Positions 3,209 through 48,118 of a stretch of 64,000 bases of DNA are shown here, piece after piece. The notes under the pieces are model-generated. The model saw nothing but the letters and a program-made list of their open reading frames with translations, did not search any database and was not told the origin of the DNA. Every line of letters starts with the position of its first letter. The stretch's first letter is position 1. Made by a program: the position numbers and the translations under genes. Origin of the DNA: Mytilus trossulus (taxonomy: Eukaryota); assembly GCF_036588685.1 (NCBI RefSeq), contig NC_086375.1:77748001-77812000 (forward strand), in the 5' to 3' direction.

Positions 3209-6200
3209 TTACATGTTGTTATAGTATAAAGTGCTAGTCATAATGTGGTTTGCAAAAACTGATACTGTTGTTTTTGAAATATTGTAAAGATTCAGTTTCT
3301 CCATTAGCGATGAACAAAGTTCACTATTTAGGTTCATTTTCTAGGAAACAAAATTATGTCATTTTTAAAGAGTATTAACAACAATATCAAACTCCAAGGG
3401 GAACTAAAAAGCGGAGAAGTCCATAAAACCTGACAAAACAAACATCCGATTGTATTAATAAACAGAACAAATTGAAAACAACCGCCATATACCAGACTTG
3501 TATCAGAAATGTCCCGATGAAAATGATGAGTCAACATAACCTTAAAAAGGAAATGCCATCGGATGAATATTGGGTTTTATTTGTCCAATAGAACAATTGA
3601 AATATTTGACATTATTTGTGTCAGCAGCTGCGTGAAAAAATCTCCAAATAAGGCAAAAATATTTTAAAACAAATATTACTTTTTTTTTATTTAAAAAAGC
3701 ATAACAAAGAAAAGAAGATTAACAAGAATATATCAAAGGAACACATTAGTATTATTTTATCAAGTTCAAAAGTAAATATCACTTTAATTTTCTGTTTTTC
3801 CTTCTGTAATATATTACTTGCAATGTCAAAATCAAGTTCGATATCAATAACTGAACAAAAGTTAATATAAGAATCCAGTCACGTGTCAATAAAATAGATG
3901 TTGATATTCTTCCAAAACTTTGGAAAACACAAAGAACTGACGATGTCCCAGATAACTGTCCCGTGTCATGGTTTTTGTGATTGGTGTATATCTGAATTAT
4001 CTATAAAAAAAAAATCAACAATTGTTATTAATTATGCATCCAAATATAGCTAAACAAAAATCAAATATATTCAAGTAAAAAATAAAGTCAACAAACGTAT
4101 ACTGCTGTTCAAAAGTAATAAATCAATTGAGAGAAAACAAAGCCAGGTTAAAAACTTAAGCCTAGGGAAACACATCAAACTTATGTGTCCTTTCAATAAC
4201 CTTCGTATATAGCCTTGTATTAATTAATTCTAAAATTATGATCGTTTCCTGTGTTCTCGGCATGTATTGGTTTATTGGTTTTATATTCATTATTTGGGAA
4301 AAAATAGGGTTTAATGTCATTTGTGTCTTTTGTTTTCTGTGTTTTGTTTTGTAAACATCTGATTGTCTTCTTTGTATTCATGCTGTAAGTACTTTTGTCA
4401 TTTTTCATCTAGTGCCTCTGTATTGGCAAGTTTCAAATGATACATTTTGCTGTACATATTCTTATAGATTTTTCCTACAGCTAAGGTTGCATCTACGCAG
4501 GCTTTGACAAATGGTTTAAGTTTTTTTTTTAATATCATACTGTTTGTTATGCTTTACAAAACGTTTATTTTATTTTTCAAGTTCATTGAATTTTCTTCAG
4601 ACACATATGATGCATATAAGGTAAACCAAATTAAGTTTAAGTTTTGGACAAAACCTTTGCTTCTTGCAGTTTTTCCTTCATTTGATAATATAATAGTACT
4701 AATAACAAATGACTTATTATACATACCCTGCTTATACTTAAAACAGGTATACTGCAAATGTTTAAATACGTTATGAATTTCGTTGGCACCAATGGTATAA
4801 TAAGTGTTAACATTATGATAGTGTAGAATAGCATAAAACACACTGCGCTGATAGGTCTGTCATTGTAACTGAGTAGAAGCAGGACCAATACAACCATTTC
4901 CACCATTAGAACTAGATTTTCTCCCCACGCACTAAAAAAACCATAACACAATAGAAACATTACCTTTTGGTTTTAGTCAAAAAATTAAATAATTTTGTTA
5001 TATTTCAAATGGCTAAAATGAAATCGATAATGATTTAATTATTAAATTGATAGAACTTTGGTACTGTCAGGCTTAACTGGAAATATTATATATTCCAAAT
5101 TGAAATTAAAGGCTTATGAATTTTGCAATATGATATATGGTTCAAATTCCTTCTGGGAAATCTACAATTGCTAAATGTCAAGTGAAGTATATACTTATAT
5201 TTATGTTCAATATAAACATAGATTTCCTATGTAATAAACTGTGATAAAACTGTATAGATTTTATATATTCTTTCGTTTTTTCTTGCTTGTTTGCCTTTTT
5301 TGTTTGATTAGTCCCCACAAGATATGGTTAAAAATACAAACAATGTAGTTGAAGTTGGAACTGCTGTAGGTGTCCCTACATTGCCATTCGTAAATTCGAT
5401 AGTAAATGTTCTCCGATGACTTGCCAATTTAAAAAACAAAAAAAATGTAAAAAATGAAAATCCATTTTTTTAATTAATAACAACACTTCATATATGCATT
5501 ATACATAATGACCTGTCTGAACAATATGTATACCTGAATGTGAAGTTCTCCTGAACGCAATATGCAACTTTCGATGAGGATGCTTGCAACATCAAAATTA
5601 TACTAACAAAGCTGACACCACTCGCGTTCCTTCTTCGGAGTATTTTAAGTATTTGTGGAATCTGACCTGTAAACAAGATATAAGTTTTAAATAGGATAAC
5701 TCAAGAAGATGATTTTAATTGTTTTTCTTTTAATTAAGCAATGCAAATTTTTGGTGATCGGTCCTCGATTTGGAATGGGGTATTTACAATCTTATTTGTA
5801 GTTGACAACTGGTTGTCTTCATCTTTTCAATGATCAACTCTTGTTGGTCTACCGCAACGGATGTTATATATATTAGGAGAATCCTTGTCATAATGTAAAT
5901 AAAATGAAATTTTTTGTCATAGAACATGCATGCCAAAACTAGCTCATAATTCTTTTAAGCGAGTACTTTTGTCTCATTTACTAGAACCCTTGTGGACATT
6001 AAACTTAAAATATAAAAGATGCAACAAGATTGTTACGTGTTCTGAAATTGGTTCAGGCAACTGTGATTTATAATAAACGCTTTCATTTTGATTTCCCTTT
6101 TGTCCGCTGCAATGCATAAGTATTAAATGCCATCTACCCACGCCTTATGTGATAGCATATCACAGGTATGCTAAAACACCCCCTGTTTTGGTGATTTTAA

Positions 6201-38580: not shown

Positions 38581-41500
38581 CTATGGTTGAAGTAGAAGTT
38601 TACATCTGGCGCTGTATATAAGGTATATGAGACGTTTTGCTTGGTGTTCTATCTTTGAGACTTCTTCACTGTTCAGACGAAGTTGTCGTTGTACCATGGT
38701 TATGTCCATCAATATCTGTATTTTGGTCCCTTCATTAAGAGATTCCCACTCTATTTTGCTGTTGCTTGTTAATATGTTCTCTATCTCTTTAATTACAGGT
38801 CTTCTGATGTTGTCCCAAGCTTTACATTTGATCAATAGATGTTCAACCGTTTCCACTTCCTGGCTGCATGCGTTGCATATTTCCTGGTTTCCTTCTTTGT
38901 AAATTTTATATCTCAGGGGCTGCAGTGAGTAGGTTCCAGTGAGGAGTTTTAGTTTGATTGGAATTCTAAAACGGTCTTTGTTGGTGTATCTTTTGATCTT
39001 CAGTATGCTGTGGATTTTGCCTGCCATGAAGTTGTCTGTTTGAAGGTATTTTAGCCCTTGATACAGGTTGGCAATAACTGATATTTCTTTGACCCAGTGG
39101 TTAGCAATTTGTCTTTTTATTTGATTGACAGTGGTTTTAGTCACATCTGCATTATTCAGACGGTACGCACAGTATTGGTGAACCCTACTAGGTCCGCGTT
39201 TTTTTCTTCCTAATTTGAGCATGTCTTTTAGAATAAATGAAAACTGGTATGATATGTCATGTCTAAAAGACAATAGTTTTATAGTAATACCTTTGAAATA
39301 ATAAAATTATAACATAAAATTAAATCAAATAACCCTATAGGGAAAAAAAACGTCAAAAAATATGAGCGTAACTTGTAACATGGAAATCGAGTTTTTTTAG
39401 TAATTTGAATCAGAAAATCTTATTTTTGCACGCAAATTAGCGGGAAATGCTATGCACAATTTTAGCACAATTCGCTACGACGTCGCATCCGACGTTTTGG
39501 GCATTTTTTTCAAATATGCGAGTTAGAAGATGCATTGAAATGTTCAAAAGATGATGTAACAAGACATATGAAATAGGGTGAACAATTACAATGGATTCTA
39601 CGGTGAGAAGTTTTATAGAATGCAATAATATATAAACGAAAAAAAAAACATATATTCTTAATGTGCTTTTAATTCTGTTTACAAATAGTACAAAAATATG
39701 GTTTGGAAGTGGAATTTTCGAATCGAATGTTAACTTTTTGCTTGTCTAGTCCATTGTGTTACCGTGTGCTAAATGCACAAATTATGTACGTTTTCATAAA
39801 TATGTTGTACATTCGAACGTAAATACAAATCAATTATGTATCTTATTCTTTAATTTGTGTATTGTTTTCGTAATGTGTTTTTAAAAGTCTTTCTCATATA
39901 AAAGGAATTTTGAATAAATAATGAAAGACAAAAAAATAATAAGAAAATCGAAATGTCTAGTCTGATTTGTTACCGTGCAATCTTGTAACGTTTTTCCGTG
40001 ATTTTCAACGTAACGTTTATTTTGTCATTTTGATTTTTTATGCATAAACTACGTTCTTGTAGGCCAAAACAAATTTTACCACCACTGAAAGAATAAGATT
40101 AAATAAAGAAAGAAAGGAAAAAAAAGAAGAGAACAAAAAGCGGGATGCGAAGATTTAGATGCAAACGTTAACACAGGCTTCAATAACCATTTTTCTGACG
40201 TTACAAACGTAGCACCAATACTGTGCGTAACGTCTCAGCATATCAATGGCTCTGCCGAGGTTGTATTTGAACATGACCCTCTGTACTTCAATATACCAGC
40301 TGTGGCTTCCTGAGGATTTTACAGCTAGTTGTCTTTTACCAAGCTGTTTTTCAACACTATTGTCTGATTGCTGACATATGTTACTAAAGAATGTCATCAT
40401 TTTGGTATGGATTTGTGCCTCGACTGGTAGGATGCCGGTTAGAATGTACACTGCTGGATCAGGAGTACTCATAGGGACTGAGAGAATTTGTTTGAGCATC
40501 TTTTTCTGGAACTTCTCTAGGGTTTCCAAGTGTGCTGATTTTGGTGTCAGAAGCTCCATCCCGTAGAGTAGTACTGGTGATATGTAAGTCTTGTATAGAT
40601 GGATTAAGCTTTCAGGATCTAATCCGTTTTCTCCATGGAATCCACTTCCGAACAAGGCATAGGCACTTCTTCTTGCTTTCTTGACATTTTCTTCAACATT
40701 GGACTCAATGTTTTGTCTCATTGATGTTGTCCTTATTATACCAAGATGTGTTGATTTTGTGACGTTTGGCATTGGATCTTTTCCTAACTGGTAGTGTTCT
40801 GGTTCACAATTGTTCTTGGTTGGCTTAGGTTTGATGTGTATTGCCACACTCTTCTGGGGTTGGAGCTTATAGCCTTCCATTCCTGCGTAGTCGGCAGATA
40901 TATTTATTTGTACCTGCATATCAGGTGGTCTTTTTCCCAATAATGCTATGTCGTCTGCACATGCTGTAGTATTGCAAAGGACATTGCCAATTTTGCATCC
41001 TAGGCCTGATTGCTGTAATCTATTCAGTAGAGGGTTAACATTTACCTTGTATAAGTCAGTGCTGAGGATTCCTCCTTGGCGCACACCTTGGCTCACTGGG
41101 AACTCGTCAGCAATCATTCCTTCCCATTTGATGGCACTAGTTGATTGCCAGTGCATACTCTGTATTATCCTCCAGAGAGTGTCGTCGATACCGCAATGAA
41201 ATAGTCGTCGCATGAGGTGACTGTGTACCACTACGTCAAATGCAGACTTTGCATCTAGTAAAACCAGCTCAAATTCTTGGTTACTGTCTACACTCTCTCG
41301 ATAGACTTCTTCCACAACCAGACCTGCGTTCAGTGGCGATGATTTTGCTGTGAAACCTCGTTGGGTTGGATTTTGATCTTTAAGGACTCTTGGTTGTATT
41401 CTATCCCTGATTATTGCCTCTATAATCTTGTTAACGACTGGCAGTACTGTTATACCTCTGTAGTTGGCAGCATGACATCGGTCTCCCTTGTTTTTGAAGA

Positions 41501-43184
41501 CAGGTGCAAGAAGTCCTTTCTTAAGTATGTCTGGGACATAGCCATGTTTAAATACCAGATTGATGAGCCTTAAAAGTAGTTGTTCTAGCTTTTCTCCTGC
41601 ATAGATGAGGTGCTCAACAGTGATGCCATATATGTCTGCAGATTTACCTCTATTTAGGGTCTTTATGGCCTTCTTAAGCTCTATCTGTGTTGCCAGGGGA
41701 GTTTCCTTACTTTTTACCATGTCGTTGATTAATTTGATTTCATATTCAACCAGTTCGTGATAGTGTTGGTCCTTCAGCTGGGATGATTTTTCTGCTGATG
41801 CTAGATTTCCAAAGTGTTCAGTAAAGCCTTCGATTACTTGGTCACCCGAGTAGAGATTATCATTTACATGTAGATCCATTATACCAGTTCTGTTTCTATT
41901 CCTGTTGCCTTTTACTAGTTTGTGATACAGCTTACTGTCTCTTGTTCTTGCCTCCAGTATCTCTTGTTTTTCTCTGTCACGCTCTCTAGCCTGCTCAACT
42001 TTCACCTGCTTTTTAAATTCCTTTCTGCTGTTGACTCTGTCTTGATAAGACTTGTCATCTGGGTTGGTGGGTTTCCCATTTCTACTCCATATATCATAGC
42101 ATTTTCTCATCTCTTTCAAGCTACCTTTGATGATTGGTGTCCATACTTTCAGTTTTGGTTTTGCCTTGTACTTGGATTTATTAGATGAGCTCTCATTTGC
42201 TGCGTTTGTTAGCATTTGGTGCATCTTACTGATTAGGAGTTCGGCATCATCTGCTGTCTCGGCTGGGCTTTCTGCCATCGTGTCCACCTGCCTGTTGATA
42301 ATTGCCAAGTATAGATCTTGGTCTACTTTGTCCCATTTTATAGTTGGTTGAAGTTGCTGAAGTTTGCTGTTTTGATTTGTACCTCTTTTTGGTATCCCTA
42401 TCTTAACTTCACATTTAATAGGATAATGGTCGGAGTGGTTACTTATGACATCTTTCAGGACCTCTTTTTCTGTCATCTCCATATGTCTGGACTTATACAG
42501 GAAGTAGTCAAGTTCGGAACATTCTTGGCCATTTGTCTTAATAAAGGTCTTCCCAGTATTCTCATAGCCTAGCCTGTAGTCTTCGATTAGTTGTTGTAAA
42601 TACTTTTTCCTTTTGTTTTGCCTTTCATCATTTCCCAGATCTTCATTGAGGTCTCCTCCAATTATAATTTCATGTGTGTCTTGGTATTTAGTGATGATCT
42701 CATTTAGTTGGTCAATGGTGTCCAAGAACTCATCTGTACTGTTTCGCCCTCCTGTTGAAGGTAAATACACTGATACCAACAGTAGTTTTTGATCTTTCCC
42801 TGATATTTCTACACATTGGATCCTCTCTTTACCATCGTCCAATGGTCTGACTTGACTATCTATTTCGTTTTTCCATATAACAGCAACCCCTCCATGTCCC
42901 CTTGGTAGAAATGTTGGTTGTATTGGGTCATATTCATCACTTCCTTTTGCAGCATAGTTGGTACATTTGCCAATTTCTTGTAGATAATGTAATTGTGCAT
43001 GAAATAGCCAGTGTTCTTGAAGCAAAAGTATGTCGTAATTTTCCATTAGATCGTGCAAGGCGTATATGTTGGATTTTGCATTTTTACAGTTGAATGATAT
43101 AATTTTCAGAACTGTAACGCCTTCTTCTTCTGCTGTTTTTGCTAACTTCTGTATTTTTGGAGGCTTGGCTGGCACAAAAAATCC
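38581..43184 (-). CDS. LINE ORF2: APE endonuclease, RT and C-terminal CCHC; intact apart from the DNA transposon at 39159-40234
   Basis: ISFNC, LLLQEHW, GGVA, SVYLP, GGDLN, ELDY, HSDHYP; NYRGIT, LLDAKSAFD, GVRQGG, ACADD; C..C....ETVEHLLIKC. Removing the insert plus one TCA restores AIDML|NNADV (~1170 codons). Confidence 0.93.
39159..40234. mobile_element. Non-autonomous DNA transposon with 3-bp TSD (superfamily uncertain)
   Basis: 22-bp TIR gacggtacgcacagtattggtg / caccaatactgtgcgtaacgtc; TCA duplication at 39156-39158 and 40235-40237; AT-rich non-coding interior. Confidence 0.88.
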
Positions 43185-45148
43185 TCGTTGTGGGTTCTGG
43201 TTTTGTTGAGGGACTCTTGATTATGGCTCGTTGTTGTCAGTCTTGTATTATTGTGCCAATCATGTATACCCTAGTTGTTGTGTTCAGCATATCTTCGATC
43301 TTTGACGGTGACATGTCTCCTATCAGGTGCGTGTGTTGCTCTGGGTTGTAGGGTGTCAGATTGTCTGTTGTTGCTTGGCTGTGATACTCTCAGTGGGATG
43401 GTGTTTACAAATGGAACACTTGGCTGTACAGTATTACGTATTAGTGGTATTCCAGCTAACATAGGTTGTGGGTGGCTATTTTGGTTGATAAATGTTGCCA
43501 TATTTGGTTTCTGGATATGTTGGTTGATAAATGCTGTCATTTTAGGTTGATGGTAGTCTTGTCTGGATTCAGGTTGTTGCTTATGCTGTACCTGTAGATG
43601 TATATTTTCATTCACGATATGGTGTGCCATGTTAAGGTTCATTACGTATGAATTTGATGCCGTATCATCTTTAGGATTCTCATGATCGTCGTTGAGTTTG
43701 TGGAGAAGACTGGGATCACCTTGACTTGCTTTCTCATACTGTTTAGTGGTGTTATCAGTGCTCAATAGGCTTGTGGCTACGGAATCAATCTGCTTTTCTA
43801 CCTGGTCCATCACCATTGATGCTAGTTTTTCGTGTATTCATTCTGTTATTCAGCTTCTTCTGCATTTGTTCAAAGATTCCGGGCTGTTCTTCTCCAGGTT
43901 GCTTCTTATTGTCTGCTGTGCTACTGTTTCCCTGCAATTCCTCAAGGCGACGTCTCATTGTTGTTACCAGTGATTCTAATTCAAAGTTGCGGGCTTCCAA
44001 GTATTGTACTCTTGTTTCAAGCAGTATTGATTTTGCCTGGTCTTCTTTTAGAGTTTTTTCTCTGATTTTGAGTTGTTCTTCAGCTTTTCTTAGTTTCAGC
44101 TCTCTTTCTCTCGTGTCTTTTGTTTTAGTATCTGTTTGGTCTTGTTTACTCTTTGAGGCTTTTGTGAAGCAAGTTGTTTGACCATCACTGCATACTAGAC
44201 AAGATGAATGGGCTATGTTTTGGCAGATCTCACATGAGTCAGCATTATCTTCTATTGTGCCTTCACATATTCCACATAATTCAGCTTCACATACCTCTTC
44301 TTCTCTTGCAGCACCTGCGTCTGCTAGTATACTTGAAGCGTTGTTACTACAGGTTGGTAGGGCGAGCTGCTGATATTGGCTGTCAATTGGTTGTGATGTT
44401 CGAGTGTTTTTTGCCTCTCCCTCAATAGCTATAATACCATTGCATATCTTACATGTATAGTTGTCGTCATTCTCCTCCTCTAATTCTATCTCCGCTATTT
44501 CTTGGGATGTCATCTTCTGGCATTTGTAATGGACCAAGTGCTTTCCTGAAGTACAATAGGCGCTACGTGTTCTACAACTTCTATTGCATTTTATGCATAG
44601 AATGCCAGCATTTACATTTTTATCGCATGTGGCTTGTGTGATTTTGGCTCCAACAGTCTGCTCCAGTCTTTCTCTCATGAGGTTGTTTAGTTGAGTTAAA
44701 TTGACTTTGGACTTTCCACATTTGGCATTTTGTGCTATCTGTCTTATTTCTGTTAGGTCCACATCGACAAAACGGTCTTGGTCTTTTCCGTTTACCAATA
44801 TCTTGCTCTTGGTGTTATAGAAGTTAACAGTGTAACAATAATCCTTGTTGTTGTACTTATAGCTGTGTTGTACAATTATGTTGCCCGATTTTTCTTTTTC
44901 TTCTTGGATTAGTATATTTTCTTGTGTCATTCTACTGTAGTTGCTTGTCTTATTAGCTCGAACGTAGCCGCGTCGGCAGTTATGACCAATCCACCTCCTG
45001 TTTTTTTAAATTCAAGGTGGGCCTCTCTTTTAGTTGCCTCTAGCTTGTTCATTAGTGCTCTCTGGATGTTAAGGCTGTAGTCCTTGGTGATCTGTCTCTT
45101 GTTTGGTATGCTGCTCCCAACCTTGCTGATCTGCTGGTTGTCCTCCAT
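43142..45148 (-). pseudogene. LINE ORF1: PHD-finger and coiled-coil protein, with two frameshifts and one premature stop
   Basis: Pieces 45148-44927, 44930-43785 and 43816-43271, continuing in frame past TAG to 43142 (..EDFLCQPSLQKYRS*). Two Cys/His clusters (CIKC..C..HLVHYKC..YTCKIC; CGIC..CEIC..AHSSC) and an E/K/L/R coiled coil. Confidence 0.8.
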
Positions 45149-45632
45149 ATTGTCAGCTGTACACAATCAGTGGAGAGGTACGTAGTGGATAATCCCACGG
45201 TCGACAGCTTTCCACCGACTGTGTACTGGCTTTGACGTTAACAGGCTATATTTTGTTTATGCTGTAGATATATTTTCCTGGCGATGTTCCTGCTTTTCCT
45301 TTATTTGTTTATATTAATAATAGTTATTTAATTTCTAATACAACTCTTTATTTATAGAAGCTGTATAAGTAGCTTTATATTTAAGCTTAAGAAAATTATA
45401 TATTTATTAATGTTAGGCTTAATTTAGACCTGATGGTACAGACGGTGTGAATATACAGCTATTTATCTATCTTCTTGGACGTATTCCTCTTGGTGGACGT
45501 CTTCCACAATCAGTATGGGTATAGTTGTACCTGTCAGTTGTAGGTTCTAAGTCTGCTGGCAATCAGTGAGTAGGTACGTCGTGGATAATCCCACTGTCGA
45601 CTGCTAATCACCAATCCACAGCAAACTCCACC

Positions 45633-46376
45633 TTACTGTTGGTAACAATGCCCCTGTGCTAACCTTCCAATCTTTTTAAGCCACACTCTGGCCAGTAGCA
45701 CTGAAGGATGAATTCCGTCTATGTATAGATTGAAGTTATATCTGTCCGTAACCCTTTTGTGTCTGTTTTTTTTTTAGCTCTTTTGCTGGTTATGACTGAT
45801 GTCGACTGATAATGTAGGTGGAAAGACCTGTATCTGTTGGTTTATTTCTCGTATTTTGCTGTTTAGCTCTAATATGTGTTTAACCAATACGCAGTCCTGG
45901 TTGATAAACTGGTTAATATCTGGGTGGTCTCTGCTTTTGTTCCAATGATAGATCGAGATTGGGGGTACTTCTAGCAGCGTTACTTTGCATCCAGGATAAT
46001 TCTGTACTATTTTTACAATTTCATTTAGGTTATCCACTGTGTCTTTTATGGCTTCAGATGGATCTGGATGTAGTTCTACGTATTTAGTTTTGTAGTTGTA
46101 GTATGTCAGGTCACATGTACCTAGCCATACATATATGGAGATGTTGTCGAGTTGGCCTATCTTAGTGGCTATGTTGTCTCTTAGCCACTGGACTCCTTTC
46201 TTTGTTGTCCTACCTTTCTCACTCCAAAATTTGATTACCCTACTGATTCCTGGTCTTATCTGTCTCTCTAGGTAGTTTCCTTTACTGTCACTAAATAAAA
46301 CAGGTGTCAGAGCTTTATCTCCCTTTATTGGCAGATCAGGTTTTTTCAGATAGTCATTTAGTTTCTTTATGGACAT
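45633..46376 (-). pseudogene. Stand-alone SGNH/GDSL esterase-like ORF at the 5' end of the LINE (one in-frame TAA at 45774-45776)
   Basis: Block I VLFSDSKG, block III VWLGTCDL, and block V YIDGIHP read in the same frame beyond the internal stop; ends GHCYQQ*. Confidence 0.78.
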
Positions 46377-46833
46377 ACCAGTTGGACACTATTTGGTGTT
46401 GTTATATGGAAATGGGGGGAGGGGAGGGGGCAGGACAGCCAAGCTTTAATAAAACGGTGAAAAATTCAATTCACAGATAATATAAGTTCGCGACTAGCCT
46501 ATTTTGACAAAGTTAATATATCAAATATACCAAATATATGCTGGAGTTTGGTCAGTTGTACCAAAAACTTTCGGTTCGGGTCGAAACCCACGTGGGTTCA
46601 ACGGTCAGAAATGTTCAGCTATTTATGGATGATTTTCCTGGTTTGAACGTTTGTATGTATTTGTTTTCCAATGACTGTTTGAGTGTTATTGTATGGTTTT
46701 TGGTGGGTTTTGCTATGGTTTGCTACACTTATTCACAAATTTCTTCCAAATTTTTCCTCTGCTCGAAAAAACACAAGATGTCAGCCGGGCCTCGTTTTCG
46801 GTCTCTTTCAAACGGGGAAACCAACGATCTAAT

Positions 46834-48118
46834 CACATGGAAAAAAAGTATTGCAACACCTTGATTTTTTAAAACTTCAAAAATCAGCCTCTTTATTTGG
46901 ATGAAATATAATAAAATATGTGTATAATATTATTGAAACATAGTTTATAATAACATTGGCATTGAAACGAACAAAAAATGTTTGGAAAAAAATGATTTAT
47001 ATAACCACAATTTTAATACCAAAATGGAGTGTTTTTTGTACAAAAAAAATGCATTTTACAACTTTTACTGTAGTCGAACTTTACAATGTTTTACAGACAT
47101 TTTAAAATTATTCCTTATATGACTGTTCATATCATGGTTGATCGTTATACGCCAAAGAATTAGTACTTTGTGCGCAGCCTCCATTCAAACGGATAACCGC
47201 TTTTCTGATTCCTGCCATAAATCGACTAATTTGTTTCTAAGCTAGCAGCAACCATTTCTGATGAAGGTCATTGTTTATTTCATGATGTGTTTAAACTGGG
47301 GTGTCCTTTCGCGCACTTTCCGCCCAATAGTGTCCCAAATATGCTCGATATGGTTGAAATTCGGGCTACGATCGTGCCAAGGAAGATGAACCGAGTTCCA
47401 TTTGAACATTGGATCTTCCTCCACGATGCTAATTTCCAATTTTGGCGATCTCTGCACTACATTGGATACGGAAAACTGTGTGTCTGTTCGTTAGCAAAGG
47501 TCTCCGAAATGGTCTTATCGCACGAAACCAATAGCGATGAGTCGATATCGAACAGTTCTTGTTAAAAGGCTCCTGTATGGCCACCACTCTCTTTTTAGGA
47601 TTGTCTTGTATGCAATGGGTTTCCTTCTGACCAACCTTCATTATCCTTGATTTTCCTTAGCAAATGGTATAGGGGGTCTTCATTATCTCGGAATGTCTTT
47701 AACAGCGTTTATTGTCTGATTTATTCTCAAAACGACTTATGATGAAATGGTGATGACCAACAATATGTGCAGTTTTTACAGCGACATCCCTGCTTCCCTT
47801 ATGCTGATAATCTGCCGTCTTGCTGCAGTTAAGAGTTGTCAAGGACCCATTATAAGGTGTCAATCACATAACTTTAAAAAATTGGTTATTTATAGGGTTG
47901 AAAACAATGAGGATAAAAACAACTGTTTTGCTGTTTACGGGTACAGTAGCTGCATGTGCAGATAAAAAAATTATAGAGTCGATATTCATTGATTAAACTC
48001 AGGTGATACTTAAATAATGTTTAACTAGTTCTATTTTACCAAATTATATCCCAAAAAAATGAAAAGTGTTTTTTTAATTCCAATTTCAATTTGGTGTTGC
48101 AATACTTTTTTCCATGTG
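46834..48118 (-). mobile_element. Degraded Tc1/mariner transposon
   Basis: TIR cacatggaaaaaa(a)gtattgcaacacc / ggtgttgcaatacttttttccatgtg followed by TA. Transposase remnant LPWHDRSPNFNHIEHIWD (WPxxSPDLNPIE-like) at 47275-47457. Confidence 0.85.

Follow-up and report, generated by a model that had tools for sequence, protein, structure and literature searches.

Hairpins linked to a stand-alone SGNH esterase gene in Mytilus retrotransposons: a candidate multi-copy protein-binding site

We have found that two hairpins located in a 64,000-nt window of the Mytilus trossulus genome (contig NC_086375.1, positions 77,748,001 to 77,812,000) are members of a family of hairpins present in Mytilus retrotransposons that carry an SGNH-esterase gene (ORF0) ahead of ORF1. 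Sequence comparison suggests that the hairpin most likely works as a multi-copy protein-binding site, and that ORF1 is likely reached by leaky scanning past ORF0. A previous sequence-only reading of the window had described the two hairpins as an RNA motif framing the spacer between two genes of a LINE. The existence of a structured, covarying RNA motif, outside Rfam and kept across LINE families, is borne out here, all the motif evidence coming from one Mytilus genome. Its role is probably another than the reinitiation, IRES or processing signal that was then proposed.

The host element

The element lies on the minus strand of the window and is an APE-type non-LTR retrotransposon. ORF2 (38581..43175) codes for an APE endonuclease (Pfam PF03372, 6e-11), a reverse transcriptase (PF00078, 6e-20) and a weak zf-RVT domain, and is split at about 39158-40235 by an inverted-repeat insertion with 23-nt inverted ends. 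ORF1 (43142..45148, the 3' end being set by offset from the intact copy L145, where it codes for 742 amino acids) starts at an AUG in strong context and is broken in the window copy by deletions near 44938 and 44165. By eye, its product has Cys-rich and coiled-coil-like segments, and no Pfam match was obtained for it. ORF0 (45633..46376) codes in intact copies for a stand-alone SGNH esterase-like protein of 246 amino acids, with an early stop at 45774 in the window copy. Between ORF0 and ORF1 there is a spacer of 484 nt (45149..45632) with 37% GC, no AUG and three AATAAA (45408, 45352 and 45305). The 5' UTR occupies 46377..46790, with the 5' end of the element at about 46790-46840 and no AUG from 46800 to the start of ORF0. 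The early stop in ORF0, the deletions in ORF1 and the insertion in ORF2 indicate a decayed copy.

Adjoining the 5' end of the LINE is the remnant of a DNA transposon (46842-48111) with perfect 19-nt inverted ends; the RNA reads that cover its end come from many other copies. In the raw RNA reads, depth was zero across the ORF0, spacer and ORF1 of the window and almost nil across those of another family. The contigs of run X2 contain the element, and neither RNA ends nor strand can be read from such contigs. In the whole genome we scored 150 esterase matches out of 303 candidates, and the closest named proteins were from Mytilus. Both the RTEX and Proto2 clades are abundant in bivalves (PMC10294476).

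Twin hairpins in the spacer

Both hairpins are found on the minus strand and belong to the type that we call Ia. Copy A (45549..45628) has a long closing stem, an internal loop, an apical GUGG/CCAC stem and a GAUUAU loop, with its core at 45601-45574. Copy B (45159..45226) has the same core (45205-45178) over a different closing stem. The two share a direct repeat of 53 nt with 83% identity, at a distance of 396 nt. In the window, matches to the pattern GTCGAYNGTG-N5-14-CACNACGTAC fall at 45574-45601 and 45178-45205, where the sequence-only reading had placed the cores; the pattern has 14 matches genome-wide vs 0 with the reversed control. That reading had also described closing stems that differ in sequence and still pair, and this is so. 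The minimum free energies were -33.5 (A) and -33.7 kcal/mol (B), with z values of -3.86 and -5.24, and 0 of 200 shuffles folded equally well. The antisense strands folded less well than the sense ones (z of -2.37 for A and -3.87 for B). Model R2, itself built from the family of the window, scored copy A at 49 bits.

Copy A begins 4 nt past the esterase stop (TAA, 45635-45633), a stop that was correctly located as regards intact copies, although the frame of the window copy ends early. The gap of about 10 nt between the end of copy B (45159) and the ORF1 AUG (45148) is as claimed, and GUGGGA is present in both copies, that of copy B lying 45-50 nt upstream of the AUG. An Rfam search at the window hairpins gave no match at E<=10, and a search of eight further loci gave none at the motif at E<=1, hammerhead, HDV-like, twister and twister sister ribozymes included, in agreement with what had been judged by eye for the first two. 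We did not find a description of the hairpin in the literature searched, the coverage of which was limited, and Repbase reports may describe these elements.

A family of hairpins in Mytilus

Type Ia (C-R-A-Y-N-GUGG-loop-CCAC-N-ACG) had 56 exact matches in the genome vs 1 with the reversed control, and a second type (type II, GU-M-AG-Y-GUGG-loop-CC-R-C-R-CUA-H-AC) had 184 vs 0, numbers that being derived from exact patterns are lower bounds. There are further variants, i.e., type Ib, a GAAGG form, a short form in L152 and another in L268. Related hairpins appear 3' of divergent esterases, in numbers that go from 1 to 13 copies per spacer and reach an array of 20 in L274, and families with esterases 56% identical still share the core.

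In a set of 47 type II copies, pre-filtered by folding energy, 84.5% of the cells pair, which was matched by 0 of 500 shuffles (slid controls gave 30-46%), and compensatory changes affect 9 of the 13 pairs. In alignment A1, G-U exceeded A-C by 54 to 22, a difference inflated by the folding filter. With selection by the core only, the first pair beneath the core was kept in 16 of 19 non-redundant type Ia copies vs 8.2 when shuffled, and own-flank pairing in these copies was -12.3 vs -5.5 kcal/mol across families. For type II the first two pairs were kept in 49 and 31 of 49 vs 40.9 and 22.9, and the longer flank pairing was not upheld in this selection. GUGGG is invariant in type I and the following A nearly so. 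The apical stem of type I is likewise invariant, so covariation lends it no support, and its pairing is proposed from folding and by analogy to type II.

Viral contigs contained 18 matches to the window pattern, lacking the conserved loop and flanks and with inconsistent folds, which we took as chance. The idea of kissing through the GUCGAC palindrome is broken by the CAAC and CGAU variants. There are also possible likenesses, which fit one subtype only, to the uS8 site of 16S h21, to domain 5 of group II introns and to the U2/branch helix.

Location of the copies

All confident copies are on the sense strand. In 17 of 18 families the first copy lies at -5 to +79 nt relative to the stop of ORF0, and in 14 of the 18 the last one lies 10-90 nt upstream of the next AUG, over spacers that in other families measure 52-1848 nt. 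Hairpins are found besides 5' of ORF0 (L150, L160, L164, L198, L210 and L234), inside the open ORF1 frame (four in L195, two in L153, and also in L157, L197 and L270) and 3' of ORF2 (L162, L215, L221-223, L231, L232 and L272). The L098/L157 family has no copy in its 52-nt spacer and three further downstream, within and at the end of ORF1. A peptide-level reason for the ORF1 copies was discarded, since two reading frames are in use among them. The occurrence of hairpins in both UTRs and in ORF1, together with the copy-free spacer of L098/L157, is a poor fit to a start signal for the next cistron or to a site at which the RNA is cut. Arrays in units of 118-170 nt were observed ahead of ORF1, with 20 hairpins at L274:49-2399 and 13 at L163:2863-4630.

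Access to ORF1

A weak upstream AUG with few AUGs before the next start is the pattern expected of leaky scanning. Over 18 families, internal Met codons amount to 5 of 4401 in ORF0 vs 175 of 10923 in the next ORF, and a purine at -3 is found at the ORF0 AUG of a single family, that of the window, vs all 18 at the next AUG. Across ORF0 and the spacer, none of the 64 triplets is as depleted as ATG (160 vs 364 expected, a ratio of 0.44), and 122 of the 160 remaining AUGs have a pyrimidine at -3 vs 248 of 517. In the window, the ORF0 AUG has G at -3 and U at +4 and no internal Met follows it; the six AUGs found between the ORF0 and ORF1 starts all have a pyrimidine at -3 and none is in the spacer. 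The LTR element L158 is a poor fit to the pattern. Ribosomes would thus slip past the weak AUG of ORF0 and scan about 1.2 kb to the strong one of ORF1, and such leaky scanning from the cap would make an IRES unnecessary.

Hairpin type and esterase

We have compared the distribution of hairpin types over trees (FastTree) of the 17 elements having both proteins. On the esterase tree the type needs 3 changes, the minimum for four states, which 0 of 1000 shuffles matched, vs 6 changes on the reverse transcriptase tree (81 of 1000), the p-values being uncorrected for shared ancestry. Given the physical linkage of spacer copies to ORF0, part of this signal is accounted for by co-transfer alone. Copies located kilobases away also match the esterase type of their element, even in neighbouring reverse transcriptase lineages (L153 with type II and L157 with type Ia).

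Esterase presence changes 7 times on a reverse transcriptase tree of 35 rows, and the motif accompanies it in LINEs of a distant reverse transcriptase clade that lack this ORF1 (L151, L152, L154 and L159), which rules out the ORF1 protein as a general partner. In three of these (L151:3064, L152:3363 and L154:3217) ORF0 is directly followed by an ORF whose N-terminus is hydrophobic and which has a 2A-like GDIExNPGP motif ahead of a Cys-rich segment, APE and reverse transcriptase. Two Ty3/gypsy-type LTR elements (L158 and L214) have the same esterase ORF upstream of gag, and between both genes there are similar-looking GAG-loop-CUCGC hairpins that the models leave unscored.

Models R1 and R2 gave 0 matches at E<=1 in 14 esterase-less LINE loci, drawn from 20 picked by ORF1 homology and most of them read only about 2.4 kb upstream of ORF1; since the models miss known variants (L152, L268 and the LTR elements L158 and L214), this blank is no proof. 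Among the same 20 loci, four with an esterase and L272, which keeps an esterase remnant, carry a hairpin variant. For L265 and L266 the boundary of the element lies 400 nt upstream of ORF1. Both belong to a LINE family of 6.25 kb that lacks the esterase; its many copies are nearly identical (99.6% between two), and it was probably active recently. A de novo scan detected repeated hairpins in 15 of 20 esterase elements and repeats in 4 of 13 esterase-less ones, the latter judged by eye to be another motif.

The association has exceptions in both directions. No esterase was found over 8.4 kb upstream of the 20 copies of L274, and no recognised motif appeared in the 2.2 kb examined at the esterase loci L129, L139, L140 and L142. 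The spacers of L139, L140 and L142, which belong to a distant esterase clade, have in its stead long stems that pair GGUGAGU with ACUUACC. Besides, two esterase-less repeats carry the hairpin. One is a P/THAP-like DNA transposon (L286:171, 1506 and 9764; L287; L288) in which a type Ia copy lies some 90-130 nt past the stops of both outward-facing genes, with stems altered yet pairing. It has a TNP-like RNase H (3e-17) and divergent ORFs for a Pif1-like helicase and a PHD protein, no esterase was found in it, and its hairpins sit at the inner edge of both inverted arms, which are 76% identical. The other is a multi-kb repeat (L219, L226 and L229, about 4000-4150) with twin type II hairpins, no long ORF and no esterase, two copies of which are 98.8% identical. 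About 6 kb upstream of one copy of this kind there is an ORF of 1110 amino acids without Pfam match (L289).

The ORF0 protein

The predicted structure of the ORF0 protein is an SGNH fold (pLDDT 93.7). Searching the PDB by sequence gave nothing below E 0.9, and comparison of folds gave a Foldseek E of 4e-8 and, by VIA-align, a GDSL enzyme at the top (Z 17.9, rmsd 2.8 over 181 aligned residues). The catalytic Ser, Asp and His motifs are kept, with S31 invariant and D219 and H222 in 90% or more, and the block III position of the oxyanion-hole Asn is Cys (GTCD) in 29 of 29. Just ahead of the DGIH motif nearly all families have a Lys/Arg-rich insert (residues 201-213 approximately), which is the least ordered part of the prediction and the sequence of which varies, by eye, with hairpin type. 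The protein family is wide (593 representatives, with clusters of Mollusca and Annelida). The esterase was absent from the viral contigs searched, and metagenome contigs gave one short partial match.

The OSK domain of Oskar is an SGNH fold that binds RNA (PMC5785220). The ORF0 protein shares this fold (PDB 5a4a, Z 14.7, rmsd 2.7, 165 aligned), at rank 22 behind ordinary GDSL enzymes, and OSK lacks the catalytic residues and had no settled specificity in that review. Retrotransposons of the CR1/RTEX/L2 groups, such as ZfL2-1, also encode SGNH esterases with intact catalytic motifs, patchy over clades, and roles in RNP assembly and membrane targeting have been proposed for them (PMC3905857, PMC5408684). 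In those elements the esterase is a domain of the ORF1 protein, which also has a coiled coil and, separately, an arginine-rich motif. The mussel elements encode it as a stand-alone ORF0 placed before a distinct ORF1; its basic insert is internal, and the hairpin is linked to it. The isolated esterase domain of ZfL2-1 (pI 10.8) did not bind oligo-A27, and the available text of PMC3905857 describes no RNA target and contains neither "hairpin" nor "stem".

Candidate roles of the hairpin

Our first-ranked reading, to which we give somewhat less than even chances, is that the hairpin is an operator-like site bound by the ORF0 protein, serving RNP assembly and the gating of scanning. In its favour are the covarying fold, the spread of the copies over different positions, the tie between hairpin type and esterase, the SGNH fold with its basic insert (OSK being an SGNH fold that binds RNA) and the scanning signature. 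Each ORF0 protein would have as its target the internal loop and apical stem of the hairpin of its own family, the variable Lys/Arg insert probably making the contact. Bound in this way it could load onto the RNA of the element for RNP assembly and possibly membrane targeting, and hairpins placed in the scanned path would let it throttle the translation of ORF1 or of ORF0 itself. The coat-operator interaction of phage MS2 and dispersed viral packaging signals are cases in which an encoded protein, by binding the RNA, links the repression of translation to the assembly of particles. They resemble the mussel system in having a short bulged hairpin, several copies and an element-encoded protein, although the analogy is one of working and implies no homology, the mussel setting being that of eukaryotic scanning and of a protein with an enzyme fold. 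Against docking, the first copy hugs the ORF0 stop, which a pure docking site does not need, and ORF0 has retained the motifs of catalysis and resembles ordinary GDSL enzymes more than OSK. The exceptions described above and the failure of the isolated ZfL2-1 domain to bind oligo-A27 also weigh against it.

That proximity to the stop favours the reading that we rank next and consider unlikely, i.e., a host RNA-binding protein that takes the hairpin as a localisation or stability signal, for germ-line transport or for protection from nonsense-mediated decay following an early stop codon. The esterase-less DNA transposon that keeps a pairing hairpin just past two genes fits it too. Stem-loop localisation signals read by Egl-BicD are known, retrotransposon RNA included, such as the I-factor signal. 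A single host reader would, however, leave unexplained the sharp types between families and their match to the esterase tree, as well as the blank in the 14 esterase-less LINE loci, and copies in the 5' UTR and ORF1 misfit a post-stop role. Ranked behind it, and decidedly improbable, is the recruitment or holding of the 40S subunit, as an IRES-like element or a reinitiation signal of new geometry. Most copies are indeed in spacers, the last one usually close to the next AUG, and type I has its nearly invariant GUGGGA over an unvarying apical stem without covariation support. The sequence-only reading had likened this GUGGGA to the TURBS of caliciviruses, and UGGGA within a hairpin of a polycistronic RNA, in copy B 10 nt before an AUG, does recall those of caliciviruses and influenza B. 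According to PMC11921876, however, TURBS lie wholly upstream of the stop of the upstream ORF, inside it and 12-24 nt from an adjacent stop/start pair, with an invariant UGGGA free for 18S rRNA. The mussel hairpins are multi-copy and post-stop: copy A is downstream of the ORF0 stop, copy B is not covered by any AUG-initiated ORF, none ends near the ORF1 AUG, and the window stop and start are 484 nt apart. Their GUGG is predicted to be paired (probability 0.87-1.0). UGGGA occurs in the two copies of the window and in 15 of the 19 non-redundant type Ia cores (selected by a pattern that itself fixes GTGGG) and varies across types, being present in 10 of 62 spacer matches over 20 families, a set that omits two window-type copies of L145 missed by the descriptor. 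By these criteria the hairpins are not TURBS. The copies in 3' UTRs and ORF1 also disfavour a recruiting role, as does L098/L157, which without a spacer copy has the same pair of weak and strong AUGs, and the avoidance of Met in ORF0 points to scanning from the cap, since neither an IRES nor post-termination reinitiation needs it.

To RNA processing, either by a small self-cleaving ribozyme or at a nuclease site that releases sub-genomic RNAs, we give hardly any credence. Two stems flanking a conserved internal loop, the stems being variable, in a LINE, give the hairpins a superficial likeness to the twister-sister-like ribozymes of human LINE-1 and OR4K15, but these need internal loops of 5 and 6 nt and a CA cleavage site that is conserved (PMC11620745). 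The mussel hairpins conserve neither: their loop sizes differ between types and the long loop strand has no conserved CA. Up to 20 copies, and copies in ORF1, would fragment the template, and Rfam ribozymes gave no match at the hairpins in a search that did return type I hammerhead-like matches elsewhere in L080. There are two of the latter (L080:2966-3009 and 3321-3364, minus strand, 33 bits for a gathering score of 34), separated by 355 nt and located in a repeat that has inserted into a 2A-type LINE. It is no more credible that the 5' strand is a splice-donor-like U1 site, used in splicing or suppressing premature polyadenylation in AT-rich spacers. Many type II copies do begin with GUAAGU or GUCAGU and the window spacer has its three AATAAA, but there is no donor consensus in the window type (GUCGAC) or in the GAAGGC, GACUGC and CAAC variants, and the strand is predicted to be paired. 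No splice joints appeared in the RNA reads, at the very low depth given above. Very improbable as well is an element that acts at the DNA level, as promoter monomer or protein site, or a duplication that merely hitch-hikes and lacks any RNA role. The tandem arrays of L163 and L274 recall promoter monomers and the spacer copies are linked to ORF0. Against it are the closing stems replaced between copies with pairing kept, the excess of G-U over A-C (with the inflation mentioned above), the sense orientation of all confident copies and the conservation of the core between families with such divergent esterases.

Implications

A broader hypothesis, more doubtful than the operator-like site itself, is that retrotransposon esterases are sequence-specific readers of hairpins. 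ORF0 and its cognate hairpin would then form a portable protein-operator module, family-specific, translated from a weak AUG and gating the scanning to ORF1, that is swapped among distant LINE clades and Ty3/gypsy elements and is sometimes borrowed by esterase-less transposons. The structural study of a retrotransposon esterase reported, in its available part, neither an RNA-binding domain in the esterase nor a target. The hairpins described here provide a candidate target of 30-50 nt with natural specificity variants, which makes cognate and non-cognate binding directly testable. The clear leaky-scanning design of a three-ORF LINE bears on the translation of polycistronic retrotransposon RNAs in general. 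If the pairs proved to be orthogonal, these elements would contain a natural set of protein-hairpin tags.
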